This document shows positions 4,930-55,182 of a stretch of DNA of 64,000 bases, piece after piece. The position numbers and the translations under genes are program-made. The stretch is taken from positions 147,410 to 211,409 of the forward strand of contig NW_021835998.1 in NCBI RefSeq assembly GCF_006345805.1. The letters run 5' to 3'. Origin of the DNA: Octopus sinensis (taxonomy: Eukaryota). Numbering within the stretch: the first letter of the stretch is position 1; the number at the start of each line of letters is the position of its first letter. Below the pieces are notes generated by a model. That model was not told where the DNA came from. It worked only from the letters and a program-made list of their open reading frames with translations, and did not search any database.

Positions 4930-5165
4930 CCGCCAACATTATTGACGTTGCGTTGCCTCTTGCAATAGGAAGGGAGATCAACTGGAGAACGAAATTGTCA
5001 AGTGAGCCTTGGAGTCTGCAGGATACCCCGCCGTACTTAAACCAGTTGGGGTTGACAGAGGAGATTGAAAACGTCCTGATGAGATCACAATTTTTTCATT
5101 TGAAGAGGGGAAACCTCTAGTCTGGGACGCAACATGTGTTGACACTCTCTGCCCGTTCAACATTG
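4930..5165 (+). mobile_element. Degraded CRE-like endonuclease fragment
   Basis: ALESAGYPAVLKPVGVDRGD*KRPD..LVWDATCVDT. Confidence 0.7.
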
Positions 5166-5169
5166 CCGG

Positions 5170-6355
5170 AGCGCAGTGGACAGACTGTATGCTGCGAATT
5201 CGAGCCGAGTGAGTACGATGAAATGGACCTTATTGTCCGAAGAGTACTCCGAGAGAATCACGTCCATGTGTTGGCAAGCAATAAGGAGAGATTGTACTTG
5301 TCTCGCGGGCAGCTAGGACGTAAACTGAATAACATCGTACACTTAAGTGAGCGAATTCTTACTAAGATGCACGACACCTTGTGGAGTGGGTCGAGTGTAT
5401 CCCAAAGGAAGGCTGCCATCCTTGCTGCTGAAAAAGCACGTAGTGCACACCTAGGGACCATAAAAGGCTATGTGTCGGCTAAGTATGGTCTAGGTGCTAC
5501 CCAAGTTAATGTGAAGGAGTTGATCAAACTTCAAAAGGAGTCTCTAATTAAAAAGATCAACTTAAAAGTCCTTCACAAGACTCTCTTTAGCAGCCTGGAC
5601 AACCCGCACATTGACGTATCGTCGTCATCAACGTGGCTGAAATATGGAAATAACTCTCCCCGATCTGAAGGGTTGTTCTCATATTTGCAGGATAGAAACT
5701 TTTTTAATGGTCAACAGAAACAGTGTAACCACTGTAAGAGTAAGGCAATGACCGTTGACCATTTAGCCACGAAGTGCGGGAGTATGCTTTACCATGATTA
5801 CACATGGAGGCATAACGAGGTGGTAAGGTCCCTCCATCTTTTGCTCTGCAATAAGTACGGCTTGAGGCGGTCCAGAAAATAGCGAACCCATCGAGTTCAA
5901 TCGGTGTGTGAGAACTCGCGGGTGTGCATTAAGGTGGATACCCCCATACGCACCTCGATTGTTGTCCAGCACAACAGACCCGACATTGTGGTCCACGATA
6001 AGGTCACCGGGGAGATTGTTATCGTGGAGGTGGGCATCACGTGCCTAGACCGTTTGCAGATAGTGGAAGTGGAGAAAAGGAGCAAGTATGACCTCCTTGC
6101 AAACGAGCTAAAACTGATGCACCAGTGCAAAGTCCATGTCATTCCGTGTGTGATGACATGGGATGGACTGGTCACCAAATACCACAAGACAGTTGGATGT
6201 AGATAAGTCTCTACAGGCTTATATACAGTCAACTGTTCTTAAGAGGACTCTGGAAAGTGTCTCGTTTGATGCTCGCCGATCCAGCCCTTTCCTGACGTTT
6301 AGTCAGCAAGAGGCGCTGGACTGCACCTTCTCGAAGGTCTACAGTGCCAGAGAAG
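5170..6355 (+). mobile_element. R4/Dong-like non-LTR retrotransposon 3' half (thumb, CCHC, RLE)
   Basis: ERLYLSRGQLGR, CNHC..DHLATKC..RHNEVV, NRPDIVVHDK..IVEVG..EKRSKYDLLA; internal stop at 5880. Confidence 0.8.
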
Positions 6356-7125: not shown

Positions 7126-8868
7126 CAGTCCGACCCCAAAATGGGGCAGACCCCAGGGGTGGGGCACCCTCGGATTTTGGGGCACCCCCGCAATTTGGGG
7201 CACTTTATTCCAAAAGTACATTTTGGCAGAAAAAAAATAAAAATCGATAAAAAATTATGGAATTTTTGGGGCACCATAAAATCATTTATAAGGAATTAAA
7301 AATAAAATAAAATTATAATAAATTAATTATTTTTTGTTTTATTTTCAATTTATATTTTTATTGTTGTGGTTATGGATTACGAAACTAAATTGAAGATTGC
7401 TAAAGAAATTTTGAAGAAAAATTTATCTGAGAGGCAACTAATGAAAAAGTACAACACAAGTAAAGGAACAATATCAAGAATAAAACGAAATATTGTACCT
7501 TTCTTGCAACACGGCAATACTATTTCTGAGGAATATGACACATTTAAAGCCGATAAAGATAAATTTGATGATCAAGTCTTTGAAATATTTCAAAGACTAC
7601 GCGTAGATAAAATTCCGATTTCAGGCCCTATTTTGAAAAAAATTGCCTTAGTTACAGCTTCAAAAATTGGATTTACTTCTTTTAAAGCTTCCAATGGGTG
7701 GCTTGATAGATTTAAATTGCGGCATGAACTTCAATTCAAGTCAATATGTGGTGAAAAAGCTTCATGTGATTTATCTTATGTGAAAAATTATTTTGAAAAA
7801 TATGACCAGAAAGTATTAAAATATGGACCTGAGAATATATTTAATTGTGATGAAACTGCGCTTTTTATAAAAAGAACTCCTCAAAAATCATTTGTTGAAC
7901 AAGGCGAACCGTGTTTTGGTTATAAACAAGGGAAAGAAAGACTCACTGTTCTTCTATGCTGCAGTTTAATCGGGGAAAAACTTAATCCATTGATTATTGG
8001 AAAATATAAAAAACCTCGGTGTCTAAAAAATTTTGATGTTCAAGATTTTGGGTTATTGTATTCATCTTCTCAAAATGCATGGATGACTGGAAAGACTTTT
8101 ATGAGTTGGCTTACACTTATAAATGAATCGTTTTGCAAAAACAACAGAAAAATATTATTAATACTTGACAATGCGGGATGCCATAAAACTGCCGAATGTT
8201 CGAACATCGAATTTTTATTTTTGCCGAAAAATACAACGCCCTATTTACAACCTTTGGATATGGGAATAATCAAGATTTTTAAAGATTATTATTCCTCTTT
8301 CTTAATGGAATTTTTATGTTTTCAAGATTTCGAAAACGATTTTACACATTCTATTGGTAAATTAAATTTGCGTCAGGTTATGATGCTAATTTCAAAAGGA
8401 TGGGAGAAAATAGATGCTAAAAGTATTGTTAATTGTTGGAAGAAAATCGACAGGAACCGTGATTCTTATGCAACAAAAAACTGTCTAACAGATGAACATT
8501 TAGATCAAGTTGTTAACGAAACAATTGATGGAGAATGCGAAGACATGAACAATAATGTTTATGATACATATTCAGAAACCGAAAATAGTGAAAATGTCGT
8601 AGCAAAAACAAAAGATCTGCTTAACAATTTAGAAGAAAAAATTTCTAATGTTGCACCAAGTATGCTCCGAGATTTTTTTGATTTTCGGCTGAAATTGACG
8701 AACAATATCAGACAAACTCTACAAATAAAAAGAAAATAACTGAATATTTTAGTAAAAATGTTTTTTGATGTTTATTAATGGTTTAATTTTTAAAAAAATA
8801 ACAAACCCCTGTTTTTGGGGCACCCCCGCATTTTGGGGCACTTGGTGCCCCATTTGGGGGTCGGACTG
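7126..8868 (+). mobile_element. Complete pogo/Tigger-like DNA transposon
   Basis: TIRs CAGTCCGACCCC(A/C)AAATGGGGCA, TA flanks on both sides, subterminal TGGGGCAC repeats, uninterrupted transposase ORF. Confidence 0.93.
7372..8739 (+). CDS. pogo/Tigger (CENP-B-like HTH + DDE_1) transposase, ~455 aa, intact and intronless
   Basis: FKASNGWLDRFK, FNCDETALF, LILDNAGCH, LQPLDMGII. Confidence 0.9.
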   Translation: MDYETKLKIAKEILKKNLSERQLMKKYNTSKGTISRIKRNIVPFLQHGNTISEEYDTFKADKDKFDDQVFEIFQRLRVDKIPISGPILKKIALVTASKIGFTSFKASNGWLDRFKLRHELQFKSICGEKASCDLSYVKNYFEKYDQKVLKYGPENIFNCDETALFIKRTPQKSFVEQGEPCFGYKQGKERLTVLLCCSLIGEKLNPLIIGKYKKPRCLKNFDVQDFGLLYSSSQNAWMTGKTFMSWLTLINESFCKNNRKILLILDNAGCHKTAECSNIEFLFLPKNTTPYLQPLDMGIIKIFKDYYSSFLMEFLCFQDFENDFTHSIGKLNLRQVMMLISKGWEKIDAKSIVNCWKKIDRNRDSYATKNCLTDEHLDQVVNETIDGECEDMNNNVYDTYSETENSENVVAKTKDLLNNLEEKISNVAPSMLRDFFDFRLKLTNNIRQTLQIKRK

Positions 8869-18197: not shown

Positions 18198-19077
18198 TGT
18201 CGCAGTCCGGAAGCGTTACGGCGCCGGAAGCGTTACGCATGTAAACAAAAAAAATTAAAAATACGTAAAACAATAATAATTTCATTTGAAAAGAAAAAAT
18301 ATCTATAAATATTAATAAATTATGAATAAATTTTAATCATTTTATCAAGTGTGTATAATGCGTTTAGTGCAAATAACAAAAGAATCCCTACAGAAAATCA
18401 AGGAATTTCAAGAAAACCCCTGTGATCTTCTTTTGGAGGATTCATCGTCTCGGATGAAATGATTTAGGCTAGCAAAATTGGCTATGTCATTTGTTTTTGA
18501 AGGCGAAACGCCATTCATTTGGCACAATAATCTAAAATTACGTTTTTTTTGTACGGATGAAACTGAATTGAGACGCAAATTTGTTGAGGTATGTATTTGA
18601 ATACAATATCAATAGGTTGAACACAATATTAATCACTTTGTCGATCTCCGAAGATATTCGGAAATTAATGACTCATTTAATTGGGTATTTGCCTTCTCTT
18701 AAACGATTAGATTCTTGTTATTGTTGATTCTTTTTCGAAATATTCCATGGTCGAGTTAGCTTATTCAAAAAGCTCCGCTGAAATTACATCTCTATTTCAA
18801 AAAGTTTTTTCTACGTGGGGCCTCCATTAATACTGCATACGGACAATGGCAAGGAATTTTGTAATGCCCATATGATTCGGCTTTGTGAAAAGTACAACAT
18901 AAAGCATGTACGAGGAAGACCAAGGGCTCCCTGGATTCAAGGTCAGGTAGAAAGGTTATAATTTGACTAAATTTAAATGTTTATAGGCTCAATCAAAGTA
19001 TAAAAAGGTGGATATCTTCCAAAAGTTATTCAGATGGACATTTTGGACGAGACTGCGATATTATCAAAGACATCATA

Positions 19078-21662
19078 CACCCCTCGACAAAAAATTTGGT
19101 TATTTAATCTTTCCTGCTTTTTTTCATTTAAAAACGAATAAATTCATACTTTAAGATCCTTTAGATCTTCTAAAATAATATTTATTTTGTATTTATAATT
19201 AAAATAGATTTAAATTTTATTATTGCAAGAAATTTAAAGCATGTCGGCAATTAGGTTAGTGACATAAAAATTGGTTATAAAATTTAGTATTTAGAGATTG
19301 ATCTTAATAAAAAAATATTTTTAGATATAATACTCTCGATTCGTTTATGAAAGGGAAAATAATTGCGCTATACGACTTAAATATGTCATATATTAAAATT
19401 TCTAAAGAAACCGGTGTTCCATATTCAACAGTCGTAAATTTTATCAAGAAATACAATAAAACTGGATCATATGACCGCCAACATGATTCTGGAAGACCAT
19501 CAATTTGAATAATGTGCAAATTAATCATTTGGTACCCACATCAGAGGAAAATTCATCTTTAACTGCTTCTGAACTCTCTAATGAAATAGAAAAGTTTTCT
19601 GGAACACGTGTCTCGTCTCGAACCATAATACGAAATTTAAATAAAAATGGAATTTTCGCAAGAATTGCAAAGAAAAAACCACTTCTAATAAAAAAACACA
19701 TGGTTTCCAGATTCGAGATCGTCCAAAAATTTCTTCAAATTTCAGACCATGATTTTAGATCAATAATCTTTCCTGATGAATGTATTTTTGAATTATTACC
19801 GATCCAAAAAAGAAAAATTGTGTATAGAAAAAAATTTGAAATGAATAAATTCGAAAATATTACTCCAACTGTCAAATTTGGAAAAGGTAAATTATGATGT
19901 AATAAAAAATTAGGGAAAGTCATGGTGTGGGGTTGTTTTTCCTATCATGGGGTAGGCGATTTGGTATTTATAGACAAAACGCTTAATTCTGCAAAATATC
20001 AATCTATTTTGACCAATAATTTGCCATATTCTGTACAAAAAATGGGGATTGTTGACTATATTTTTCAACAAGACAACGCTCCCTGCCATACATCAAAAAT
20101 GATTATTCAATATTTTCGCGAAAAAAATATTAAAAAATTAGAATGGCCTTGGCAATCTCCGGATTTAAATCCGATAGAGCATTTGTGGGCTTATATGAAG
20201 GTTCAAATTAGGCAAAGAAAAAATGAGAACATTCAGGCACTGAAGGAAAATCTATTAGATATTTGGAATTCTATTCCATCAAAAACACTTGAAAATTAGT
20301 TGAGTCAATGAAAAAAAGGTGGTGGGAGATCTATTCGGCAAAAGGAGGTTATTCTACATATTAATCTCACAATAACCAAATTTTATGCCAATTAAAGTCG
20401 TTGTTTTTTCCAAATTTCTTAGACAAAATTTCAAAATTTAAATAATTAAATTAATTTTTATCAATTTTATCAGATTTTAAAATACAGTGAATACCCCCAA
20501 ATTCGCCAATTCTTAGATTCGCCTTTTTAAAAAAAAAATTCTAGTTTCAATGGAAATTCGCCAATTCTGAAATTCGCCACAATTTTTTAAAATTTTTAAA
20601 TAAAAAATACAAAAATATGGATAAATAATACATTTTTAAAAAGTTCTTGTTCGAGTTTGAAAAAAGACATGAATTCCGTCTGAAAAAATTGCATGGGCAG
20701 ATAAAAATTATGTTCTTTCCTAAAAATGCAATAAGAATAATTCAACCAATGGACTTGGGAATTATCAAAACATTTAAAGTGCACTTTAATAGGCACCAAT
20801 TATTTTATCTCACTATAATTTTGGAAACTGACAAAGTTTCGATTTATGAATCCTATAAACATTTAAATCTTAAGGACACTGTTTTTTTATAAAAATGGCT
20901 TTGGAAGACGTATGCTCGAAAACTATTGAAAATTACTTCAAAAACTGAAAATAATAGATTTTGATGAACAGTCTACAGATAAAAATTTAATTGATGAATT
21001 GATAATTAAAACAGATATTTATGATCCTATTCAAATTGAAAAATTCATTTCTATAAATTATTTAGAAGAAAATGCAATTAGCGAAGAAAGTAATTTCGAT
21101 AATGAAGATCCTGAAGAACAATCTGCAGATAAAAATTTTTCCTTCAAATGAACAAACAATATTTCATCTCACTAGAAATGAGATTGGTGTAAAATTAAAA
21201 GAAATTGAGAAGTCACTAATCGAAATAGTCGAAAACGAAGATGTGCGTCTATACCATTTTTGCTTGCAGATGACATTTGAAGTTTGTAATTGTCAAATTG
21301 ACTTGAAAATGGTATAGTTACTTCAATTCGAAGATTTGAGGAAAAAAATCAAAATACAAAGAGACAACAAACAGGACTGGAATATTACTTTGATAAAAAA
21401 GCATAATTCTTTGTTAAAATAAAATTAATTTTTTCAATTACGTCAATTTTGGCTGTTTTCGAATTATTAAACATTTCTACTCACATTCAAAAATTATTGA
21501 TTATATTCTGAAATTCGCCATTTCTCAAATTCGCCGCAAAAAATGACGGAACCAAAAATAGCGAATTTGGGAGTATTCACTGTATATCTGAAGAAAAAAT
21601 TAAATCATTCTTTCTATGAATGAAGTAAGTTGAAGATTCACCAATATTTATGTCGAGGGGTG
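19078..21662 (+). mobile_element. Tc1-like transposon (with nested Tigger)
   Basis: Ends CACCCCTCGACA / TGTCGAGGGGTG with TA flanks; TVKFGK|GKVMVWGCF across a 27-nt intron (19887-19913); QQDNAPCH, SPDLNPIEH. Confidence 0.85.
20485..21582 (+). mobile_element. Internally deleted pogo/Tigger element inside the Tc1 right end
   Basis: TIRs CAGTGAATAC(C/T)CCCAAATTCGC, TA flanks, IQPMDLGIIKTFK. Confidence 0.85.
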
Positions 21663-22329: not shown

Positions 22330-22760
22330 AGTCTTTTCGTATACCAAGGAAGTCGATTTGAAAGCATTCATAAATCCTGATAAACATTATTAACAGTGAT
22401 TAGTGCGTTTTCTGATTTGGTTTATGGAAATGTGCCAAAAGATTGCTCAATTTATCTGGCCATAACGTCATATTTTCTAATTATAAGATCAAAAAAGTCA
22501 TATTTTTAAGTTCAAAATTCTGAAAAATCTATACGAAGAGTTCAATGTAGTTCAGATACATGGAAGAGAAAAACAATCCCCGTACACAGAGGATTGTAGA
22601 ACGTTTAAATCAAATCATCACCCGAAAACTCTTCAAAATGATAGACACAGATGAAAAAAAGTGGCTGGAAATTCTCAAAAAGCAGTGTACTGTTATAACA
22701 AGCCTGTACACTCATTTTTCAAATCAGAGTCTTAAACGAATCCCCAGAGAAGGTTGGTTG
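22330..22760 (+). pseudogene. Degraded Ginger-like integrase core
   Basis: QIHGR..NNPRTQRIVERLNQIITR. Confidence 0.55.
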
Positions 22761-22764
22761 TAAA

Positions 22765-23559
22765 AATGTACAGGAACTTGGCTAGAGGGAGCCAGAGTAC
22801 CTTTGGAGGATATCATAAGATTTATTTTCTTGTGGGCCAATAACATATCATCGGTCAAAGTGTGTTCAGACAATTTGGGGTGGGCTGGGCATACGACTGT
22901 GAATTGGTTGATGTACCTTCGTGATATTTGCATACAATCACTCACATCTCGTCGAAGAAGGAAAATAGGTTAGTGTATATTTAAATAGTATTAGGAGGTG
23001 AAGGAATGATAGTCGAGATAGATGAGAGTCATTTCTCAAAACGCAAATTTAACAAAGGCCGAGTATTGCCCAAGCAATGGGTATTTGGAGGGATATGTCG
23101 AGAGACAAAAAGCTGTTTCCTTGAGATGATCCCAGACCGTACAATGGAGACTCTCTCAAATGCGATATTGAACAATGTTGAAAAAGGAACTATTTTAATA
23201 TCGGACTGTTGGAAAGGATATTCTTCGGAATTCCTTGAAAGTGCAGGATATCATCATTTAACTGTGAATCACAGATACCACTTTGTCGACTCTACTACGG
23301 GAGCATACACACAACACATTGAACGGTTTGAAATTAATAATTAATTAATAGTATGTGGGGGAGCGCAAAATGGCGCAATAAGAGACAGAGAGGGACTGTC
23401 CGCAGGCATATGAATAGCTACTTCTCAGAATTTATCTGGAGGCAAGAACACAAGAAACAGGAATTTAAGAAAATTGTCAAAGCTATATCAATATGCTGGC
23501 CACCTCAGACCAAAGTGGAGGATAAATTAGTTAAATATTTAAAAAAAATTAGTAAATAA
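22765..23559 (+). mobile_element. Merlin (ISXO2/IS1016-like) transposase, 5'-truncated, two 26-nt introns
   Basis: KIG|GEGMIVEIDES (intron 22969-22994), WVFGG, SDCWKGY, TVNH, TQHIER|MWG (intron 23326-23351). Confidence 0.85.
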
Positions 23560-23617
23560 TTCATTTTTTATAGTAATTAATTATAAAACACATATATTAT
23601 CACTGGAAAAAATAGTA

Positions 23618-25399
23618 TGTCGCGACCCACGCTGGCGACCATCCAACCTTCATTTTGACAGGTTATGACCTTCAGTGATGTATTTTTGACATTAATTGCG
23701 ACCATCAGTTGACAGGTGATATATCGATGTATTTTTGTATTAATAAAAAAAAACTAAAGACATTTTAACACTTAAAAAAATTAACACTTTTTAACTCTGT
23801 TCATAGTAACTATCTTGGTTTCATTTCCTAATTCGATCTAAATGTTAGGAAAAACAACTAACCATTAATCTGTTATTAGACATTATATTTTTTACTTTTC
23901 CCTTTTCTTCATATGGGGATTCAAATCTGTGTAGCTTCAATGACGGATTCGTCCCACAATCTTTTAAGATTCGAACCTAAACTGTTATTATTTAATTATA
24001 CCTCATTCCCTATTTCAAAATCATATTTTGACCTGTGTACTCCCATCTTTGTATTCATTCTTTTAAAATAAGATGAATTCATGTCTGGAGGAGTGAAATT
24101 AAAAATTTTGTTATTCGTTTCTAAAATAAATACATCGTAAATTTACCACTAAGTTCATCTTCGACAAACAATGCCTCATTATTTTCATCTAAATTATAAA
24201 TAAGATTATAACCTGGTATTTCATGAATCACAGTGTTAATTCCAGAAATACCCCTAAACTTTTTGAAGGGGGTCTCATTGATCGCCGAGTGGTGTGTCGT
24301 ATTATAAGAAAAAGTTACTGTGTCTAAAAATCGTTTCCAATTTTTAGTTCCCTCTATTTCCATCATTTTGGCCAGAGCACGAGTTAAGGTTTGGTTAAAC
24401 CTCTCAATCACACCCTAAGTTATATAAACTAACAAACTTGTGACTGAGGATGGTTTGGCCTTCCATAAATATGCTTAATTTTGTTTTCCTCGCATAGTTG
24501 AGCCATAAGTTGGTTTTTGAATTCCAACCCGTTGTCCGTTTGCAAGATCTGACAATATCCAATTTGATAAAACAATTTTTGGAATTTATTCACCACTTCT
24601 TCAATTAAATTTTAAGTCTTACCAGAAGCAGTTTTATTTTTTAAAGATTTGCAGACAACAAATTTGCTGTGGATGTCAATAATTGTCAGTATCCAATTAA
24701 ATCCATCGTTAAACTCTTTATATCTTCTTACATCAATAAGATCCGCCTGGAATCTTTCATTGGGTTTTCCTGCAGTTACATGGTAATTAGAATCCGACAC
24801 CTAGGTATATTTTTTTTACATACTTTCAATGGTAGGGCAAATTTACAAATTTCGCAGTCTTTTATAATTTGTTTGATGATTGGACGTTTTACAGTGAAAT
24901 AGAATTCACTGCACTTTTTCTGAAGCTTTCGTATTCCCCAGTGGGATTCTTGGTGAATGGCGAATGCTAGTGTCCTCATCTCCATTTCATTGTCCAGACA
25001 AATGACCAATTTGTGTTTTTGGTTATTCTCGTCCTTTAGATAAAGACTATGAGTTAGGAGTCGCAAATATACCGATCATTAATAATGATAAATTGAGTCG
25101 CTTTTTTCATAAGTTTGTATTTTTCTGACTTGGATGTAGTCATCACTGGTTGTTGAAGTAGTACACTTCTCAGATTTTGGTATTCACTGTCGTTTTTCAC
25201 GTAGCCTAAGAATTAAGACTATATGAGCTAACATCTTTTGAGAGAAACCATAATTTTTTTCTAAAACGACGCTAAACCATTTCTTAAAATGAATTTTTTC
25301 CGGTTTAAATATCAAACTAATCACCTGTCAAACTGAAGGTCATAACCTGTCAAACTGATGGTCGCCAGCGTGGGATGGTCGCCAGCGTGGGTCGCGACA
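23618..25399 (-). mobile_element. Complete Ginger-like integrase DNA transposon, 1782 bp
   Basis: TIR TGTCGCGACCCACGCTGGCGACCATCC at both ends, TAGTA duplicated at 23613-23617 and 25400-25404, subterminal TGACAGG repeats. Confidence 0.92.
23781..25251 (-). CDS. Integrase-type transposase, 423 aa after removal of eight micro-introns
   Basis: Exons 25251-25233, 25205-25073, 25046-24824, 24800-24623, 24598-24438, 24414-24147, 24120-24002, 23976-23863, 23837-23781 total 1272 nt with no internal stop; HQESH..CEIC, FQADLID, QTDNG, D35E GVIERFN. Confidence 0.88.
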
Positions 25400-26039
25400 T
25401 AGTATTATTTTGAAACTCGCTAAAAAGTGGCTGTAGACTACTACAAAAGTAACAAAAAAATAATCAATAAAATAGTGGAAAAAGATAGAAATACTAAAAA
25501 ATCCAAATAGACAATAGAATAGAATTAAATTTAATGTAAAAAGTTATGAATGGAGATGAATTAATTGATAAAGTGAATATAAATTCGCTTGCAAAATAAA
25601 CTTTATCCAAGATATTTTACCAGTAGTCAAATTAATTAATCTTCAAACAAATAAATAAACTTTTTTCTGCATTTTGGTTAAAATGAACAACTACAATGTA
25701 AAGAAATCACTAATTAAGAGGCGGAACCGCAGACGAGAGGAGGATCGAGGCGGAAAAAAAAAAATAAAAATAAAAATAAATAAATAAACAAAAATGTTAA
25801 ACAATAAAACATTAATAGCAAGAAAAAAATGAAATAAAATTTAACAAACAGAAGCACAACAGAAGATAAAAAAACATTAATAACACGTGATAATTTATTT
25901 CAATTAATTCGATAAATTTCGAACATTTAAAAAATTATATAAATAACATTTAATATTGTCAGTCATTTTGAATTCAATTAAGTTTTTTTTTCCAAAACGA
26001 GCTGCTTCCCGGATTCAAAAGCGAAAAGCGTACAGCCGT

Positions 26040-26423: not shown

Positions 26424-27820
26424 GGTACCTGGACGACGCGACCATTGGCGGCTCTGTGGAATCCATCACCGAGAACCTATCCCGCCTAATCCCTGCTTTG
26501 CGCATCCTTGGCCTAGAAGTTAACGTGAATAAATCGGAACTCCTAAACCTCAACTACCCTGAGGCGGATTTTCTGAATGTCAATATGATCATCCAAGACT
26601 TCATCACTTGTGCACAAGTAACCCAGCCATCAGAAGCAACCTTTCTTGGATGCTCTTTAAGCCCATCTGGCCTAAAGGCCCATCTGGCGAAGAAGGACAT
26701 GGAATTCTGTAACCTCAAAAGCAGTCTCTTGGAGTTAGACTCGCACATCGCTTTTTTCCTCATGAAAAGCAGTATACAGTCTGTAACAGCAAAAAGGAAT
26801 ATTCTTAAAACACCATTTAAAATTAAATAATATTCATTTTAAATATTTAAATCACTCTAATGACATTAATTATTATGTAATTACGTTTTTATAAATTTTA
26901 AAAATCTTTGAAAATACATAATTTTAGTTAATTATTTGAAATTTTGTATGAAACACACAGCAAAGCTTACTAAACAATTTTTGAATGAAAAAAATGTTGA
27001 ATTGTTGCAATGGCCCCCCAATCTCCTGATTGTAACCCAATCGAAAACTTATGGGGAATAATTAAAGAGAAAATAGCAGAAAGAGCGCCTCAGAATTTAA
27101 AAGATCTAAAGGCCGAAATTTTAAACGTTTGGAATGAATTTGATAAAGAAATATGCAAAAAATTGTCGTTAAGTTTTAGAAAAAGAACATTGGACCTTCG
27201 TCGTGCCAAGGGAAAATATATTAACTATTAATTCAATGGTTTTTATTGTTGGGTTTTGATATATTACTTTTTGCTGTTACAAAATTTCAAATAATTGACT
27301 AAAATTATGTATTTTCAAAGATTTTTAAAATTTATAAAAACGTAATTACATAATAATTAATGTCATTAGAGTGATTTAAATATTTAAGATGAATATTATT
27401 TAATTTTAAATGGTGTTTTAAAAATATTCCTTTTTGCTGTTACAGACTGTACATATGCCAAAACTTCTTTACACGCTCCGCTGCTTGTCATGCTACTCGC
27501 ATCCAGACATTCTGTCTTCCTTGGAAAAATCATTGAAATTCTGCGCGGAAGCAGTTCTGAACATTTCCTTTGACGAAATCGGTTGGACTCAAGCAAAACT
27601 TCCCGTCAGGTTCGGAGGGATCAGTCTTCGCTCGCCTAAAAATCTGACGCCACATGCACATTTCTCTTCAATTTCCAGAAGCCGTCAACTTGTCCGAAAG
27701 GTTCTACTCCCCTTCAACGAACTCTCTCTGGAGTTGCCGACTGCCGACTTCCTAGAATTCTGGACTGACGCGAACCTACCCCTCCCGTTCGACATGTCCG
27801 TGCAACGGGAATGGGATAGA
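26424..27820 (+). mobile_element. CRE-like RT C-terminal fragment interrupted by a Tc1-like element
   Basis: YLDDATIGG..FFLMKSSI[insertion]HMPKLLYTLRC..QAKLPVRFGG. Confidence 0.8.
26777..27449 (+). mobile_element. Internally deleted Tc1-like element with ~170-bp IR-DR-type TIRs
   Basis: CAGTCTGTAACAGCAAAAAGG ends, TA flanks, inner repeat TTTTGCTGTTACA, QSPDCNPIENLW. Confidence 0.85.
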
Positions 27821-28137
27821 GGGGGTCAGCCTACCGCGAACAAAACTCTCTACGTGACCCCCGAAAAGATCAGTGGGAGTGGCCTCCTGTTGAAAATTTT
27901 TGACAAACTTTACAAACAAAAACATTTGACACAATGTGTCATTGACGAGGTTCACTGTGTTAGTCCGGTCAATACATTGTGATTTTTAGTGGGTGATGAC
28001 TTTCGTCCATATTATAAACGATTTTATTTGCTCAAAACCGGGTTTAGCTGAGTTCCATTTATGTTGTTTACAGCCACGGCAACTGAGCGTGTGAGGATTG
28101 ATATCCTTCATCAAGTCCAAGTGAGTACTCCTAAATA
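27821..28137 (+). pseudogene. RecQ/BLM-family helicase fragment (copy 2 at ~34950-35266)
   Basis: LYVTPEKI..VIDEVHCVS|W..DFRP..VPFMLFTATATERVRIDI; 22-nt intron 27968-27989; frameshift and stop present. Confidence 0.8.
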
Positions 28138-29963
28138 CAGTGAACCCTCTCTATAGTGAACAGGCCATATTAATGCAATCTACAATAACAAATATCAGTA
28201 ATTCTCATTAATATATTTATTATAAAATGAATACCACGTTTAAAAATGTATAATATCATTTATTTAAATATTTTTGTGTTCACTATTAAAGAATAGTGAA
28301 CGTCAAATTTTTGTGAACATAAAAATATTAAATTTAATATTTTTACATATATATTTAAAATTCTTTAAAATGAATAAACTACACGTTCTACAGTTGTTAG
28401 CATGGTGGAAAATCGAAAACGCCTGTCATTTTTTCAAAAGAAGGAAATAATCGAATTTTATCATAAAATAGACATTACACACAGCGCGATTTATCCCTTT
28501 ATTTCAATGTTTCTCTGGGCTGCATAAACAAAATTTTGAAAAATTCTGAAGGAATACTTAATGTTCAAGATGACCAAAAAAAGAAGAAAATTTACTTGCC
28601 CAAGTCTCAACCATTCGACAGAGATCTATTTGAATGGTTCGTTAAAAAACGATCATTTGGATTTACAATCAATGAATATCTTTTGAAGTCCATGTCTCTA
28701 AAAATGGCGAAAGTTTGTAATATTCAAGGATTTCAAGCATCAAATGGATGGCTTGAGAAATTTAAAAATCGATATTGCATTGCTTCCCGTGCTTTATGTG
28801 GGGAAAATTAATTTGTTGAAACCTCTGTGATTGAAAATTTTACAGAAAGCCTCAATAGAAAATTAGAACAATATTGTTCAAAAAATTTTTTTAATTTGGA
28901 CGAAACTGGATTGTTTTTTAAACTTTTGTCGAACAGAACATTAGCTGTTGACTCGGACAAAAATCTGTCTAATAAACCGATAAAAGAAAGAGTAACTGTT
29001 ATGTTTTGCGTTAGTATGATGGGAGAAAAACTTGACCCATTTGTTATTGGAAAAGCCAAAAATCCACGCTGCTTTAAAGGAAGAAGAAATTTAATTAATA
29101 ATTTACAAGTGGAACTCAAATCAAATAAAAAAGCATGGATGACATATGGTTATTTCTCAGAATGGCATATAGAATTGAACAAAAAATGATAAAAAGAAAA
29201 ATTCTAATTTTACTTAATAATTCGACGTACACTTATATGATTTAGAATTCAGTAACATCAAACTCTTTTTTCCCCTCCAAATACAACATTGAAATTAAAA
29301 CCCAGGAATAATAAAATCATTAAAAGACAACTATAGACAACTCCTATGTGCATACTTGATTGAATTTTATATAAATGATAGCAATGTAGATCACGAAAAA
29401 GTTACGGAAAAGTTGAAGAAATTTACTCTATTGAATTGCTTGATATCCATAAATCAAGCTTGGTTAGAAGTGTCGGAATTAACAATTACAAATTGTTTCA
29501 AGAAAGCATTTGAAAATGCGTTAATGCAGAACCTGACAGAAATAGAAGAAATAGATGATGAAAATTTTTTGATTCATGCAAATGATCAAATTGACGACGA
29601 AAACTTTATACAAAACTTCGCGAGAAAACTAAAACAGCAAGACCAAGTTGAAGAGGAAGAGGAAAAATTTATGTTCCGACACTATATGAAGCTAGTGAAT
29701 ATGCGAAGGCGCTTGAATTATGGTTTCTTGAGAATGATTATGAACAAAGAGGAAAAGTATACGAAATACAAAAAATTTTAATAAATTATCAAACTAATCA
29801 TTCTCAAAAAATCACCGATTACATTATTAAAATCTCTAAATAATCTTTGTAATTATACTTTAATATTGTTTATTATTATTTTGATTCCTTTTGTTCACTA
29901 TAGACAATAGTGAACATGATGTTTTGACGTGGACATTTTGTTCATTATAGAGAGGGTTGACTG
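28138..29963 (+). mobile_element. pogo/Tigger-like transposon, copy 1 (defective)
   Basis: TIRs CAGT(G/C)AACCCTCTCTATA, TA flanks, FQASNGWLEKFK, FNLDETGLF. Confidence 0.9.
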
Positions 29964-29965
29964 TA

Positions 29966-30430
29966 GTACAGATGAAAATCCACATTCACATAGCCATGTT
30001 GTTGCAAATTGTTACTAAACTTCCAGTGCTTACTTTGCAAGTTTCGGAAACCTAACTTTCGGAGATCAAGGCCGCCTACGACAGTGGATAAGGCATCCAA
30101 ACTGGGAGTTGAGATCTCCAAGTCATTAGTTACTAAACATGTTTATTCTGCAGTTCTGAAAGTGGGTTTCTTTTTATACCAAAAATCATTTTAACATCTC
30201 AAATCTTTGTTGAAATGTGGCACTTATCAAATTGAGTGATATTATTAACAATGGCCTGATATCCATTGGGATGCTTTACGTCATCAGAATTTCTCAAATT
30301 ATAATTTTAGCGTCAATTTTGGCTATTCAATTAAAGTAGTTAGCTCTCATCTTCAGCTGCTTTTGTCTGCATTGCAAACACTGTATTTAAAGCGGATTAG
30401 ATAACTATTCTTAGAGTATTATTTTCTTTA
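29966..30430 (-). mobile_element. hAT C-terminal dimerisation-region remnant (also in duplication copy 2)
   Basis: FPKLAK*AL..QFATTWLCECGFSS. Confidence 0.55.
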
Positions 30431-30515
30431 TTTAGGTAAAGCGTATTCATCTCCACTTGTGTCGTATGTATGGAATTAAACGAAGCAGGAAATTGAAAGG
30501 TCTGATATCCATTGG

Positions 30516-31312
30516 ATTCTCCTTTGAGCAGAAAGATCCATTATATGGGATCCCACTTGCTGTGACACATTCTCCAACAGGAACCTAGCCAGGTCTGCCG
30601 TCGACCCAGGCTTTGCTTCCAATCGCGCGGAAGATCTCAAAATCCTGAAGTACGGTCACCTCTCCAGCTTTGTTTTCACGCCCATCGCCGTTGAGACCTC
30701 TGGGGTCTTCGGCCGCAAGTCGCTTTGTTTCCTACGCGGTTTGGGGAGAAGAATCGCCAAAAGGAGGGACTACCCGAGAGAGTCCTTCTGGCTTCTTCAA
30801 CGCCTTTCCATTGCCGTAATCGGCGGCAACTGCTTCGCAATCCGTGAGGCTGGAAGAACGCCCTAACCTGCGTAGTCTTAAACAATCCTTCTCCCTTTTC
30901 TAGCTGTCTTTTAATACACGTTCGTCATAAAAAACTACAAACACTACAACTATTATACACATACCGAATTACTTTGTTTTTTAAATTTTTTGGTAGAAAA
31001 TTTCGGTTGGAACTTAAAAAAATCTTTATCTCAGAGACACATCTTTCAACCCAGCACGAAGTTGACTGACAATTCTGGAGTAATAAATACTCGGCAGGAG
31101 ATATATGTGAATTGATCATTTTAATTATGTTTAAAATATCATTTTTGAAGCTTTTTGTATATGTATTTTTAATAAATTTGTTGCCATTTCCAAATCCTAA
31201 CTTTCAAATTTTGTAACAATATTTGCAATAGCGACATTATTTGGAAACCTGGATTGTTAGAATAGCTTCGGATATTCAAATTAGATATCCATTATCCGCG
31301 AATGATTCAAAA
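30516..31312. repeat. Inverted copy of ~42072-42869 (CRE 3' end plus hAT fragment)
   Basis: ORF 30676-30885(-) is identical to 42498-42707(+). Confidence 0.92.
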
Positions 31313-32640
31313 GGAGAATGTAGTTAAGCCGTCAGGGCGTTTGCCGTCACCTCTGTCCAAACCGACAGGTTCGAGGACGGATGGCAAGGAGATGGCGGTT
31401 CTTAGACACTCGGAGTCTAGGAGGTTCCCAATTGAAGGGAGGGGGAAGGCATCAATCCAAGCACCGCTGCCTGGGTGACAGCCAGCACGAAGTCAGGCGA
31501 ACTTGTGTTGGTTAAGTTTTGCAGTGAGTTCTTTGTACAAAGACCGACATACAATCTCGTCCCACTGGCGCTGGTTGTCCTCGGACTCAGGCTGCTTCGA
31601 GTCAAATCGGGCCTTTTATAAGAGACCAGCCGCGACAAAATCTGCAGAAACTTTCCTTTCAGAAAGGTTTCGAAGAAAGATGTCTGAGAGAGTGCGGGAG
31701 GCAGAATGAGAGGACAGATAAGCCATAAGAGCCAAATCGGAACAGGATCTCGAACCAAGGCCGCCCCAGCGCACAGGTAAGGTCGCCTGAGACCAGCCAT
31801 AATCATCGAAAGCAAGATTGCATAGGGAGCTCATACTGAGCTTAAGAATGTAATCGAAATCAGATAGGAGGTCGCTTCTGTGGAAGCAGGGTGCATATCT
31901 TAGCGTATAAAAAACCTTGGGGGCGGAAAAGTAATTTCGCAGGAGGAAAAATGCGACGTGATGCTTGATGTTTTTAAGCCTCTCGATCATTTTAGCGAGA
32001 TTTGAAATTTTTTCAGAAAATGAAGCTTCTAGGGAGGAAGAGCCTATGGGAACCCCAAGGATGGATAGATTGGAGTTTTCGGTGATACGAACCTCTGGAA
32101 GAAAATTGCAGCAAAAAGAAGAGGCTGCAGAGAATAAACTATGTTGAAAGCCGATGTTCGCGATTTCAGATTTTTTTGCGTTGATAGATAGGCAATAGCC
32201 GAGAGTGATAGGAGGATAAACCCGCGGTCGTCGAAAACGACCTCAAGAGGACTACAAATGGTGCCGTCGTCCAGGTACCAAATGTTAGAAGGGGACCGGA
32301 CAGAATGGGCGATGCCATTAACGCCTAGGGCGAAAAGCACAGGACCAAGGGGATCGCCTTGCTGGACCCCAGTAGACGAGGTGATAGGAACGTCGTCAAA
32401 CATAAGTATGCTTGGGGATGCGTAAGCGAGATGTACAAGGGAGTATGCGGAAGGAGCCATTTTGCGGCAGCACTCCAGTAAGTGATCCTGTCTGATGGAG
32501 TTAAAAGCATTAGATACGTCCAGTTTGACCATGATAAACTCCTCGGAAGATTCTAACAGGTCACGATTGGAATGAGCCGCGGCCTTGCAACCATTGGAAA
32601 CGCCGACACCAAGTTGAGCGGACAGAAAGTTTGGAGACAA
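31311..32640 (-). mobile_element. CRE-like RT core to endonuclease (copy at ~42517-44180 continues to the ORF stop)
   Basis: QLGVGV, KLDVSNAFNS, GVQQGDPLGP, WYLDD, DGKRPDG. Confidence 0.88.
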
Positions 32641-32919
32641 ACAAGGGACTATGGCATGACAGAGAAGCTTAACGGAGAGCTTCCGGAAAACATTTTTAGT
32701 TTTTGGTTATTAAGTTAAATTTTGGGGTTAATTTTTTTAGTTTTTAGGTTCATAAAGTTAAATATTATGTTAAATTTTTTATTTTGTAGGCTAAAAATCG
32801 CCCTAAATATAAGTAAGAAAATGATGACATTTCGTGTCAGCGATTAACTGATAGATTCTCAAACATATTCGGGAGGCGCAGTTTCGGACCTTACCTGTCC
32901 TATGATCAATTACCACTTG

Positions 32920-33128
32920 ATATTCCAGCTCTTGAATATAAATTGAAATTCTTCGCGGTCCAAGGACCCTAGGGAATTTACTTTCCTCATTCAGAGGATC
33001 CTGCTGGCTGTCATGCGTGGCAACAGCTGTTCCCTCCGTCTCGCTGGGAGAATTTATTAGTTTGTTGACTTTACTTAGTGATTATAAATAATACCTGTAA
33101 CACAAAAAAAAAAAAAAAAAAAAAAAAA
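32920..33128 (+). mobile_element. CRE-like 3' terminus with poly(A) tail (copy at ~44450-44665)
   Basis: DPREFTFLIQRILLAVMRGN..stop, then a run of more than 20 A. Confidence 0.7.
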
Positions 33129-33279
33129 TTGAAATTTTTTATAAATTAAACTAACTTTGTAATTTTTTAAATAATGTAACAAAAACTAGGGGTGCTTTTA
33201 TACTTTTGGGAGAACTTAAATAAAAACAATTATGTTATTGAAAATAAAATTTTATTACAAATAAACAAGTGTCCCAAGA

Positions 33280-33560
33280 CTAATTTGACCCACTGTATAT
33301 TCTGGAATAAATCTTCAAAAATAAAAGAATTGGGATTTAAACAATTTGAGGTGATTAAAGGGGGCCTGGCTATAGATTTGCCAACAGTCTACTGTGAGCA
33401 ATTCAATACTCAAAGAAACCATGCAGACTTGATAACGATGATTTGAAATTAAAATGCAATCCTCATTTAATAGCGATGACATGGGGTTACTCTTCTTATT
33501 TAAATGATTAAATAATTTCTTTTGTTCTCGTTAATTTTTTTTATTTCATTTAGTCAAAGT
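33280..33560 (+). pseudogene. 3' fragment paralogous to the L-domain gene (copy at ~44816-45095)
   Basis: SKIKELGFKQFEVIKGGLAIDLPTVYCEQF plus similar 3' flank. Confidence 0.8.
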
Positions 33561-35266
33561 TTTACGTGTTATTTTAAAATCAGAAAAACGTAATCGAGTA
33601 AAAAACCCCTCTACATACAAAGTTGATCAACTAATTTTGCCAATGATATGGAGGATGACAAGTTTTTTCAAATATAATAATAATTTTGAGAAGATAATAA
33701 TACAAAATATATAGCTAAGGATATAAAAAATGAAAATCTTAATAAGCTAAATTTTCTTATAAAAAATTATAAAAAGTACGTTCATACTAAGACATGAATA
33801 CCCGTTCCAAACCGTACACGGCAGTGGAATATATAGAGTAATTTTGGACTTGGAAAAAAACATTAGTTTTACCGAAAATTATTGGAATTTGAAATGCGGT
33901 TTGAAAAATGGCGGATCAGCCAAATGAACGATGGCATTTTTGAAATGGAAAAGAATTAAAATGCGATAAAGTCATTAATTGACTAATATCAGGTGCTCCG
34001 GAGAAAATAACTCAACGTTCTTGCTCATTAATGATAAGAATAGTCCGTAAAAACCAAGAATTATTTGAAATTTTGTATGAAACACACAGCAAAGCTTACT
34101 AAACAATTTTTGAATGAAAAAAATGTTGAATTGTTGCAATGGCCCCCCAATCTCCTGATTGTAACCCAATCGAAAACTTATGGGGAATAATTAAAGAGAA
34201 AATAGCAGAAAGAGCGCCTCAGAATTTAAAAGATCTAAAGGCCGAAATTTTAAACGTTTGGAATGAATTTGATAAAGAAATATGCAAAAAATTGTCGTTA
34301 AGTTTTAGAAAAAGAACATTGGACCTTCGTCGTGCCAAGGGAAAATATATTAACTATTAATTCAATGGTTTTTATTGTTGGGTTTTGATATATTACTTTT
34401 TGCTGTTACAAAATTTCAAATAATTGACTAAAATTATGTATTTTCAAAGATTTTTAAAATTTATAAAAACGTAATTACATAATAATTAATGTCATTAGAG
34501 TGATTTAAATATTTAAGATGAATATTATTTAATTTTAAATGGTGTTTTAAAAATATTCCTTTTTGCTGTTACAGACTGTACATATGCCAAAACTTCTTTA
34601 CACGCTCCGCTGCTTGTCATGCTACTCGCATCCAGACATTCTGTCTTCCTTGGAAAAATCATTGAAATTCTGCGCGGAAGCAGTTCTGAACATTTCCTTT
34701 GACGAAATCGGTTGGACTCAAGCAAAACTTCCCGTCAGGTTCGGAGGGATCAGTCTTCGCTCGCCTAAAAATCTGACGCCACATGCACATTTCTCTTCAA
34801 TTTCCAGAAGCCGTCAACTTGTCCGAAAGGTTCTACTCCCCTTCAACGAACTCTCTCTGGAGTTGCCGACTGCCGACTTCCTAGAATTCTGGACTGACGC
34901 GAACCTACCCCTCCCGTTCGACATGTCCGTGCAACGGGAATGGGATAGAGGGGGTCAGCCTACCGCGAACAAAACTCTCTACGTGACCCCCGAAAAGATC
35001 AGTGGGAGTGGCCTCCTGTTGAAAATTTTTGACAAACTTTACAAACAAAAACATTTGACACAATGTGTCATTGACGAGGTTCACTGTGTTAGTCCGGTCA
35101 ATACATTGTGATTTTTAGTGGGTGATGACTTTCGTCCATATTATAAACGATTTTATTTGCTCAAAACCGGGTTTAGCTGAGTTCCATTTATGTTGTTTAC
35201 AGCCACGGCAACTGAGCGTGTGAGGATTGATATCCTTCATCAAGTCCAAGTGAGTACTCCTAAATA

Positions 35267-37108
35267 CAGTGAACCCTCTCTATAGTGAACAGGCCATATT
35301 AATGCAATCTACAATAACAAATATCAGTAATTCTCATTAATATATTTATTATAAAATGAATACCACGTTTAAAAATGTATAATATCATTTATTTAAATAT
35401 TTTTGTGTTCACTATTAAAGAATAGTGAACGTCAAATTTTTGTGAACATAAAAATATTAAATTTAATATTTTTACATATATATTTAAAATTCTTTAAAAT
35501 GAATAAACTACACGTTCTACAGTTGTTAGCATGGTGGAAAATCGAAAACGCCTGTCATTTTTTCAAAAGAAGGAAATAATCGAATTTTATCATAAAATAG
35601 ACATTACACACAGCGCGATTTATCCCTTTATTTCAATGTTTCTCTGGGCTGCATAAACAAAATTTTGAAAAATTCTGAAGGAATACTTAATGTTCAAGAT
35701 GACCAAAAAAAGAAGAAAATTTACTTGCCCAAGTCTCAACCATTCGACAGAGATCTATTTGAATGGTTCGTTAAAAAACGATCATTTGGATTTACAATCA
35801 ATGAATATCTTTTGAAGTCCATGTCTCTAAAAATGGCGAAAGTTTGTAATATTCAAGGATTTCAAGCATCAAATGGATGGCTTGAGAATTTAAAAATCGA
35901 TATTGCATTGCTTCCCGTGCTTTATGTGGGGAAAATTAATTTGTTGAAACCTCTGTGATTGAAAATTTTACAGAAAGCCTCAATAGAAAATTAGAACAAT
36001 ATTGTTCAAAAAATTTTTTTAATTTGGACGAAACTGGATTGTTTTTTAAACTTTTGTCGAACAGAACATTAGCTGTTGACTCGGACAAAAATCTGTCTAA
36101 TAAACCGATAAAAGAAAGAGTAACTGTTATGTTTTGCGTTAGTATGATGGGAGAAAAACTTGACCCATTTGTTATTGGAAAAGCCAAAAATCCACGCTGC
36201 TTTAAAGGAAGAAGAAATTTAATTAATAATTTACAAGTGGAATACAAATCAAATAAAAAAGCATGGATGACATATGGTTATTTCTCAGAATGGCTCATAG
36301 AATTGAACAAAAAAATGATTTTACAAAAAAGAAAAATTCTAATTCTACTTGATAATGCGACTGTACACTTACGTGATTTAGAGTTCAGTAACATCGAACT
36401 CTTTTTTTTCCCTCCAAATACAACATCGAAGTTACAACCCCTTGATCAAGGAATAATAAAATCATTCAAAGACATGTATAGACAACTCCTATGTGCACAC
36501 TTGATTGAATTTTATACTAATGATGACAATGTAGATCACGAAAAAGTTACGGAAAAGTTGAAGAAATTTACTCTATTGAATTGCTTGATATCCATAAATC
36601 AAGCTTGGTTAGAAGTGTCGGAATTAACAATTACAAATTGTTTCAAGAAAGCATTTGAAAATGCGTTAATGCAGAACCTGACAGAAATAGAAGAAATAGA
36701 TGATGAAAATTTTTTGATTCATGCAAATGATCAAATTGACGACGAAAACTTTATACAAAACTTCGCGAGAAAACTAAAACAGCAAGACCAAGTTGAAGAG
36801 GAAGAGGAAAAATTTATGTTCCGACACTATATGAAGCTAGTGAATATGCGAAGGCGCTTGAATTATGGTTTCTTGAGAATGATTATGAACAAAGAGGAAA
36901 AGTATACGAAATACAAAAAATTTTAATAAATTATCAAACTAATCATTCTCAAAAAATCACCGATTACATTATTAAAATCTCTAAATAATCTTTGTAATTA
37001 TACTTTAATATTGTTTATTATTATTTTGATTCCTTTTGTTCACTATAGACAATAGTGAACATGATGTTTTGACGTGGACATTTTGTTCATTATAGAGAGG
37101 GTTGACTG
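35267..37108 (+). mobile_element. pogo/Tigger-like transposon, copy 2
   Basis: Same TIRs as copy 1; 323-aa ORF with DETG, LLDNA, LQPLDQGII. Confidence 0.9.
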
Positions 37109-37579
37109 TAGTACAGATGAAAATCCACATTCACATAGCCATGTTGTTGCAAATTGTTACTAAACTTCCAGTGCTTACTTTGCAAGTTTCGGAAACCTAA
37201 CTTTCGGAGATCAAGGCCGCCTACGACAGTGGATAAGGCATCCAAACTGGGAGTTGAGATCTCCAAGTCATTAGTTACTAAACATGTTTATTCTGCAGTT
37301 CTGAAAGTGGGTTTCTTTTTATACCAAAAATCATTTTAACATCTCAAATCTTTGTTGAAATGTGGCACTTATCAAATTGAGTGATATTATTAACAATGGC
37401 CTGATATCCATTGGGATGCTTTACGTCATCAGAATTTCTCAAATTATAATTTTAGCGTCAATTTTGGCTATTCAATTAAAGTAGTTAGCTCTCATCTTCA
37501 GCTGCTTTTGTCTGCATTGCAAACACTGTATTTAAAGCGGATTAGATAACTATTCTTAGAGTATTATTTTCTTTATTTA

Positions 37580-38117
37580 GGTAAAGCGTATTCATCTCCA
37601 CTTGTGTCGTATGTATGGAATTAAACGAAGCAGGAAATTGAAAGGACATTCGGTTGTCTCAATAATGTCGACCCAAAATGTCGAAATCAAAGTTGACACG
37701 TCGTCTGAAACGAAAGTCCAATTCAATAAACCTGATATTTTCGTTTATGACAAGAGGAAAAGAGAAATCAATTTAATCGAAGTGGGAGTTACCTCTCAAG
37801 ACCGTTTAAAGCAAGTTGAAGTGGAGAAATTTCACATATACGACCTGCTTGCAAACGAACTGTCGGTTCTCTATGAAGCAAAAGTGAAGATTATTCCAAT
37901 TGTCTTGACATGGGATGGAGTTGTCTCAAAGTTCTTTAAAAGTCATATGGACAAGTTATCCATTGAAGAAGGAACGAGGACATACATCCAGTCTGTTGTG
38001 CTGAAGAGGACGCTAGAGAGTATGCTTGTCGAGTACAGACATGGGATTAAGGTAGACAACGAGGAGTACGCCTCTTCCAAGAGAAGAAGAGAAACCACTG
38101 AAGATCTGGATTTTTAA
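37580..38117 (+). mobile_element. R4-like RLE domain (second family)
   Basis: NKPDIFVYDK..LIEVGVT..YDLLANEL..TWDG. Confidence 0.8.
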
Positions 38118-46714: not shown

Positions 46715-46810
46715 TGTCGCGTCCCATACAAGCTACCCATCCCATGGTTGCTACATGTTGCCTGTCAATCTATTATAATGCCTGTCATAGTGACTGTCAA
46801 AATCAATTGA
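46715..46810. mobile_element. Isolated Ginger-like terminus
   Basis: TATTA-TGTCGCG followed by (C)CTGTCA repeats, as in the complete elements. Confidence 0.6.
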
Positions 46811-55140: not shown

Positions 55141-55182
55141 AAATAAATGACGTGCTAGTTACTGTGTGTTAGCGTGCCTTGC

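Follow-up and report, generated by a model that had tools for sequence, protein, structure and literature searches.

A compact Ginger-like DNA transposon with eight predicted micro-introns and microsporidian relatives in the Octopus sinensis assembly

Introduction

The described transposons closest to the element reported here carry a DDE enzyme of the integrase type between terminal inverted repeats (TIRs). Ginger1 elements, in the account given in PMC2836005, have TIRs with TGTNR ends, spliceosomal introns and a Gypsy-like integrase of ~400 aa made up of an N-terminal extension, an H2C2 zinc finger, a DDE domain and a GPY/F-type C-terminal domain, and our element, whose introns are predicted ones, is like them in each of these features, with the GPY/F letters kept only in part. 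Ginger2/Tdd elements are given as the source of KRBA2/SCAND3 in PMC3575427, and elements of Ginger type, defined by their rve domain, are reported from the microsporidian Anncaliia algerae in PMC5751038; PMC7313128 and PMC4455052 offer context only. GingerRoot (PMC6839031) and Polinton/Maverick elements likewise place an integrase-type DDE enzyme within TIRs. As described, GingerRoot has a 6-bp target site duplication (TSD), TA termini and no HHCC finger, and Polintons have a 6-bp TSD, AG.. ends, a DNA polymerase and an integrase without a zinc finger; the element reported here differs from both on every one of these counts.

The locus was analysed within a 64,000-nt stretch of the Octopus sinensis assembly (GCF_006345805.1, contig NW_021835998.1, positions 147,410 to 211,409), hereafter the window. 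Its transposon agrees in structure with the broad definition of Ginger, being a TIR element with one Gypsy-integrase-like DDE enzyme and neither RT nor gag, with TGTNR termini, an H2C2 finger and a D-D35-E triad. Our reading, to which we assign a probability of roughly 65%, is that it is a TIR transposon with eight predicted micro-introns, carried by what is likely a dicyemid, and that its family likely came from microsporidia and gained its introns later. In what follows family A is the family of the window copy, and B to E are related families in the same assembly.

Results

The transposon (23618-25399, 1782 bp) is bounded by perfect 27-bp TIRs starting TGTCGCGA, the left one at the 3′ end of its gene (23618..23644) and the right one at the 5′ end (25373..25399), and a 31-nt imperfect inner arm extends beyond the perfect part. 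The 5-bp sequence TAGTA stands on both sides (23613..23617 and 25400..25404), so the perfect repeats of ~27 bp and the duplication claimed in the original prediction are both present. Both ends read TGTCG, a form of the TGTNR terminus found also in families B and E. Near the left end lie two subterminal TGACAGGT motifs (at 23656 and 23710, spanning 23656..23717 on the plus strand), in inverted orientation to those at the opposite end of the element. There the 5′ subterminal repeats (25320..25390, minus strand) consist of a 22-nt pair containing TGACAGGT and of 17 nt in which the inner TIR is repeated in tandem. The motifs may be binding sites for the encoded protein. TGACAGGT is common to families A and B (23656-23717 and 25323-25352; 56260-56288), its orientation being opposite at the 5′ end.

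The insertion point lies inside the terminal repeat of a Merlin (IS1595-type) element (22764..23612, plus strand), and that repeat resumes at 25405-25446. A search for empty TAGTA sites had been proposed, and nine paralogous Merlin ends in 8 distinct loci run through a single TAGTA into the sequence of the window's right flank. The left-flank search, for which 15 loci were fetched (one of them the window itself), gave paralogous empty sites; the right-flank search returned no allelic empty site. A 5-bp TSD flanks every one of the 18 family-A loci that have both ends. It is chiefly TATTA or TAATA, and where rarer letters occur they covary on the two sides (TAATT, TAATG, GAATA, TAGTA). Among the 30 family-B loci examined, the TSD is found in 7/7 with both matching ends. 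TAWTA is the target preference of the transposon, and the window copy is an insertion into a TAGTA site.

The gene runs on the minus strand from an ATG at 25251 to a TAA ending at 23781. Removal of eight GT-AG segments gives one stop-free frame of 423 aa, and the predicted segments, frame, H2C2 finger and D,D35E spacing were all recovered; retaining any single segment cuts the frame to 7-410 aa. GC content is 34% in the exons and 25% in the introns. From the 5′ end, all on the minus strand, exon 1 with the ATG (25233..25251) is followed by intron 1 (25206..25232, 27 nt, phase 1), exon 2 with the N-terminal extension (25073..25205) and intron 2 (25047..25072, 26 nt, phase 2). Exon 3 (24824..25046) carries the zinc finger, H82-x3-H86 and C115-x2-C118, and matches Integrase_H2C2 (E 2.4e-5); intron 3 (24801..24823, 23 nt, phase 0) separates it from exon 4 (24623..24800; rve, E 0.0032), which encodes D145. 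Intron 4 (24599..24622, 24 nt, phase 1), which holds an in-frame stop, is seen in family A only. Exon 5 (24438..24598; rve, E 1e-6) supplies D206 and, across intron 5 (24415..24437, 23 nt, phase 0), exon 6 (24147..24414; rve_3, E 1.8e-4) supplies the catalytic E242, with 35 residues between D206 and E242. Intron 6 (24121..24146, 26 nt, phase 1, alternative donor at 24149) falls in a variable linker in which related families also have a phase-1 intron. Exon 7 (24002..24120), intron 7 (23977..24001, 25 nt, phase 0), exon 8 with the SH3-type C-terminal domain (23863..23976), intron 8 (23838..23862, 25 nt, phase 0) and exon 9 with the TAA stop (23781..23837) complete the gene. Single exons match Integrase_H2C2 and rve, each falling under the Pfam cut-off when taken alone. 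The positions of introns 2, 3 and 8 are common to families C/D, that of intron 5 to family D (L111) and that of intron 7 to branches A, B, C and D.

The C-terminal module had been predicted to be GPY/F-like. An SH3-type domain collinear with the C-terminal domain of Ty3 integrase is present and aligns with it, and the tripeptide itself reads, by eye, EKG in the window copy and DPF in family B. In the YPYY region upstream of the finger, compared by eye with the definition in PMC2836005, the F and LY positions are conserved; families A, C and E have the P, and only family C has F-P.

With 71 GT-AG spans of 19-34 nt on the gene strand, it could be supposed that the segments are not introns, and that the 423-aa frame of a dead copy with small insertions is an artefact of picking GT-AG pairs in AT-rich DNA. 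A blind spliced alignment, guided by a profile from 16 external proteins only, nevertheless reproduced introns 2, 3, 4, 5, 7 and 8 to the nucleotide. For intron 6 the acceptor was exact and the donor fell at 24146 or 24149 (at most 3 nt off); intron 1, upstream of the profile-aligned part, lies outside the reach of this test. The profile alignment scored 842 when spliced; the score was 611 when no intron was allowed, 633 when introns had to measure 41-80 nt, and 31 on the opposite strand. The diverged subfamily L004 has all eight introns and all 16 splice dinucleotides: over introns 1-5 it differs from the window at 30 of 103 interior bases and at none of the 20 GT/AG bases, and its introns 1, 3 and 5 are each longer by 1 nt (28 nt for intron 1) with the frame intact. 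Splice dinucleotides thus stay invariant while intron lengths drift. Five intron positions recur at the same codon and phase in families ~45-50% identical, with unrelated intron sequence, and 77 distinct introns over nine well-aligned positions measure 21-34 nt (median 26). The dN/dS of the spliced frame is 0.17-0.21 between subfamilies and, with few changes to count, 0.44-0.50 between the closest copies, which points to purifying selection along its whole length. Together with host genes of identical intron style (below), these observations leave the artefact reading hardly credible. The eight micro-introns are very likely real, and that the locus is a real, spliced DNA transposon seems to us highly probable.

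Searches with the natural 288-aa frame of family B returned 25 proteins and 58 cluster representatives (E up to 1e-30); exon 6 alone, used as query against longer proteins, gave no match. The closest named relatives come from Dictyocoela roeselum (KAG0418124.1), D. muelleri and Nosema granulosis, to which the window protein is 42%, 38% and 38% identical over its full length, and all are labelled 'Gag-Pol polyprotein'. The D. roeselum protein (458 aa) sits on a 1475-bp contig with 98 nt left for TIRs, UTRs and any introns, and that of Nosema (424 aa) on a 1466-bp contig with 191 nt left. Judged from the contig room of these two proteins, the microsporidian relatives look to have few introns or none. 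The relatives scanned (P0146, P0126) contain rve and H2C2 only, with no OTU/Ulp1; the 'Gag-Pol' label is misleading, as the microsporidian relatives have neither gag nor RT. Metagenome and viral contigs yielded distant relatives only (best segments 21-39%), with a TIR in 0 of 8 loci checked, and no named Ginger, TDD, GIN1 or KRBA2 sequence was among the relatives returned by the protein searches.

A profile of the window group matches Ty3-G integrase (E 7.5e-23, positions 33-416), C-terminal domain included, and also that of prototype foamy virus (PFV). The modelled D. roeselum protein (85-row fold, pLDDT 85.8) is laid out like an integrase and ends in a beta-barrel tail, and Foldseek with this model placed the PFV and Ty3 intasomes first (E 7e-19 to PFV). 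These matches, the 'Gag-Pol polyprotein' label of the relatives, and the LTR-like TG..CA ends and 5-bp TSD could be taken to mean that the element is what is left of an LTR retrotransposon or a Polinton, mobilised by the enzyme of another element. The ends, however, are inverted rather than direct, 1782 bp is too small for gag, RT or polB, and the relatives are stand-alone proteins of 400-460 aa with rve and H2C2 only, which in a wider quick tree form a group apart from RT polyproteins and Polinton-like integrases. An RNA intermediate would moreover have stripped the introns, and selection acts on the whole frame; the remnant reading is highly improbable. A Gypsy LTR retrotransposon as such was rejected on the inverted ends, the single 423-aa gene and the lack of direct LTRs, gag and RT/RNase H.

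The window lies at the end of an unplaced contig of 211 kb (C12469, which carries GalE) with a GC content of 33-41%. Genes on this contig have introns of the same style: GRP94 has seven of 24-28 nt in its aligned part, and GalE six of 23-34 nt, hand-placed, leaving a stop-free 339 aa. The adjoining Merlin gene has two 26-nt introns (22969-22994 and 23326-23351), and a Tc1-type transposase (DDE_3, 19487-20299) one of 27 nt (19887-19913), so that micro-introns appear to occur in several DNA-transposon superfamilies of this host. A pogo-like transposase, recognised by eye at 7327-8739, has one 470-aa frame and no intron and is perhaps a more recent arrival. Host genes also contain GC-AG micro-introns of 26-27 nt (L061:6501-6527; GalE intron 3). 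The original prediction is supported in that the element is compact, is a DNA transposon with TIRs and a Gypsy-like integrase, and has eight introns of host type. Its description of the intron density as extreme does not hold: the element has 5.4 introns per kb, GalE 5.1 and GRP94 3.3, the neighbouring Merlin and Tc1 genes also have 26-27-nt introns, and Dicyema japonicum averages 6.2 introns per 1155-bp CDS according to PMC6736024.

The assembly combines two animals, a micro-intron animal having been co-assembled with a mollusc. On the chromosome-scale contig C1 (213 Mb) GRP94 is interrupted by an intron of 3.2 kb, and multi-unit molluscan haemocyanin is encoded on contigs C5 and C28; none of the transposon matches listed lies on C1, C5 or C28. 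Many innexins are found on small transposon-bearing contigs, with introns of 22-29 nt in 3/3 read. The innexin family is expanded in the second animal, on unplaced contigs such as C12469, C9300, C8299, C7512, C9073 and C12605. GRP94 with an identical exon occurs on three small contigs, which suggests several haplotypes or individuals.

Animal introns shorter than 30 nt are described in PMC13644364 for myxobolid myxozoans and Dicyema japonicum, and the genome of the latter has 36.7% GC and 49% repeats (PMC6736024). From the intron size, the innexins and the co-assembly with a mollusc, rather than from a match to dicyemid sequence, we consider the carrier very probably a dicyemid. Another micro-intron animal such as a myxobolid, with the element otherwise as described, would also have introns of this size (median 22-27 bp in myxobolids, PMC13644364); no dicyemid sequence was matched, and GRP94 is ~46% identical to that of many animals alike. 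The bulk of the assembly, however, is a mollusc with multi-unit haemocyanin; myxosporeans alternate between annelids and fish, whereas dicyemids live in cephalopod renal organs (PMC12953835); and the GC of the contig fits that of D. japonicum (PMC6736024). A myxobolid or similar carrier is therefore improbable. Hosts of two further kinds were rejected, a ciliate-type one since the frame has a single TAA, its stop, and normal Gln codons, and a microsporidian one on the animal-type GRP94 and the many innexins.

The window also contains segmental duplications of ~99% identity (26930-30500 with 34059-37645, 3.6 kb; 31310-34070 with 42859-45606, 2.8 kb). Pieces of non-LTR retrotransposons with a restriction-like endonuclease lie at 5121-6206, 37581-38117 and 47751-48407. 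Similar non-LTR retrotransposons occur in microsporidian genomes, and the pieces would be a hint of wider sharing of mobile elements.

The prediction that the element might still be active fared unevenly. The whole gene is covered by four copies examined, and only that of the window is free of stops and frameshifts, although some frameshifts in the other full-length copies may be sequencing errors; a genome search in which 40 of 342 candidates were scored found no identical second copy. Sixteen internally deleted copies of 1.3-1.6 kb are 96-100% alike and mostly at different sites, so the family was probably moved in trans fairly recently. They are not processed cDNAs, as introns 2-4, 6 and 8 are kept and the gaps ignore intron borders. 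The copies have a mosaic make-up. In the 5′ part of the gene the window copy and L003 differ at 9 of 632 positions; near the 3′ end they differ at 21 of 119, and there the window copy agrees with L004 instead (3 differences in 119). Current activity of the window element is plausible.

Five further pieces of the integrase group lie in the window (56215-57809, 55180-56000, 46715-47480, 18637-18960 and 22560-22680). The first is a broken copy of the sister family B (plus strand, TSD TATTA, 27-bp TIR), which has no intron at six of the eight positions and two of its own. The fragment at 18.6 kb has predicted introns at other positions again (~codons 159 and 240 of the external profile). Elsewhere, two family-B copies (L034 on C9497, L036 on C10213) are unbroken and one residue apart, with four introns, at different target sites. 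These appear better candidates for recent activity than the family of the window.

Introns were mapped over 35 loci of this assembly (codon.phase, window numbering), with no more than two sites counted in the linker (residues ~296-335), one near 302-308 and a phase-1 site near 324-330. The positions in family A are 7.1, 51.2, 126.0, 185.1, 239.0, 328.1, 368.0 and 406.0; families C/D have 51.2, 126.0, 171.2, ~304.1, ~324.1, 368.0 and 406.0, and D has 239.0 as well; the positions in family B are 151.2, 284.1, ~330.1 and 368.0; and family E has 50.1 and 141.2, neither at a position used in A-D. The distinct positions in A-D number at least 12 with both linker sites, or 11 with one dropped. A tree of 36 hand-chosen rows, 14 from this assembly and 22 external (some of which may derive from mRNA contigs), with its root set by the choice of outgroup, unites A-D of this assembly (97/86). 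With three Dictyocoela proteins and one further protein these form a 100/99 clade nested among stand-alone proteins. Family E branches apart from A-D, and a single clade for all rows of this assembly is rejected (p-AU 3e-5). Family A is basal in the best tree (91/80), in which case family B would need four intron losses; A+C/D as one clade is not rejected (p 0.34).

Discussion

The simplest reading of the tree and the intron map is at least two horizontal arrivals, each with later intron gain. Opportunity is documented, as microsporidia infect dicyemids (PMC4150386, PMC8262960) and are reported to exchange transposons with animals in both directions (PMC4202319). Gained introns would be kept because a DNA transposon is copied as DNA. 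We favour transfer followed by gain, with modest confidence. The introns could instead be old, the animal family having been intron-bearing throughout and the microsporidian versions having lost theirs via cDNA, or the transfer having run from animal to microsporidian. Ginger1 has 1-4 introns, some long conserved (PMC2836005), the exchanges are bidirectional (PMC4202319), and a basal family A means that family B lost four introns, so loss does occur. Intron-rich copies are also under-sampled in databases; protein collections made by intron-blind gene callers miss intron-rich animal relatives, which biases the comparison toward gain. Against old introns, the clade of this assembly sits inside a large set of full-length proteins encoded on short contigs, two separately placed lineages have non-overlapping intron sets, a further fragment in the window has yet other predicted positions, and repeated complete loss is less economical. 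We regard old introns as unlikely, without dismissing them.

On the reading of transfer followed by gain, at least two lineages would have entered horizontally before acquiring their introns. The eight 23-27-nt introns would need no more than the normal spliceosome of their carrier, a micro-intron animal that is likely a dicyemid. By analogy with integrase chemistry, the 423-aa protein, with its N-terminal extension, H2C2 finger, DDE core and SH3-type tail, would recognise both the TIRs and the subterminal repeats. Cleavage at the ..CA-3′ ends would then be followed by their joining to target strands with a 5-bp stagger, from which host repair would make the TSD. The same protein would move deleted copies in trans. 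Cut-and-paste movement by its own enzyme, also part of the broad Ginger definition, would agree with the insertion that the empty sites record.

What appears to be new is the microsporidian affinity of the family and the branch-specific intron sets, neither of which figures in the original prediction. Literature searches turned up no account of this family, nor any of introns gained by transposases in dicyemids; one may exist in Repbase, in subscription papers or in supplements (for example Bao's alignment file). Cases of intron gain that offer both an intron-poor outgroup and a large number of dated branches are rare, and here one transposase gene has at least 11 positions in related families and two in a second lineage, in a parasite known for genome reduction. 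If two jumps and the subsequent gains are true, nature would have run the experiment of de novo intron gain more than once in one genome-reduced animal, and micro-introns would confine the element to hosts that can splice them. There are practical consequences as well. Gene finders that accept no intron shorter than 30-40 nt overlook such elements wholly, and genes and repeats of the second animal hidden in this assembly would be wrongly assigned to the mollusc.

The comparison with known systems points to a Ginger-like group that has no clean fit to either defined subgroup and is mislabelled in databases. Tentatively, and at a little under even odds, we propose a third Ginger-like group of 1.6-1.8 kb with a 5-bp TAWTA TSD, filed as microsporidian 'Gag-Pol', which would have jumped at least twice from intron-poor microsporidia to a dicyemid, each lineage then gaining its own 21-34-nt introns to the average density of the host. 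Membership in Ginger/Tdd-4, as originally suggested, stands in part. The Gypsy-like integrase, TIRs, TGT ends and introns agree with it, whereas the TSD and the missing protease tail exclude Ginger1 and the fit to Ginger2/Tdd is partial. Ginger1, as described in PMC2836005, has a 4-bp CCGG/CCGT TSD as against the 5-bp AT-rich TAWTA here; an OTU/Ulp1 tail, whereas our protein stops at 423 aa after the SH3-type domain; a length of 2.6-7 kb with TIRs of 40-270 bp, as against 1.8 kb with a 27-bp perfect TIR; and 0-4 introns, as against eight. Its GPY/F and YPYY letters are kept here only in part. By the same source, TDD-4/TDD-5 share the 5-bp TSD in an AT-rich target, whereas animal Ginger2 has a 4-bp TSD in RTATAY, and Ginger2 is said there to lack GPY/F and YPYY, motifs whose literal letters are degenerate in our element while the homologous domains are present. 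Compared with Ginger2/Tdd, the TIRs are also shorter and the element smaller. Judged by published descriptions, the element is Ginger-like in its working, falls outside Ginger1 and has no clean fit to Ginger2. The integrases of Ty3/Gypsy and foamy virus (PDB 7q5b, 3oyi, 5frm) resemble its protein in profile matches and the modelled D. roeselum relative in fold, although they are parts of Gag-Pol that integrate cDNA, and here the gene stands alone between TIRs. The microsporidian 'Gag-Pol' proteins are alike in length, domain order and clade, and differ in appearing to be single-exon or nearly so.
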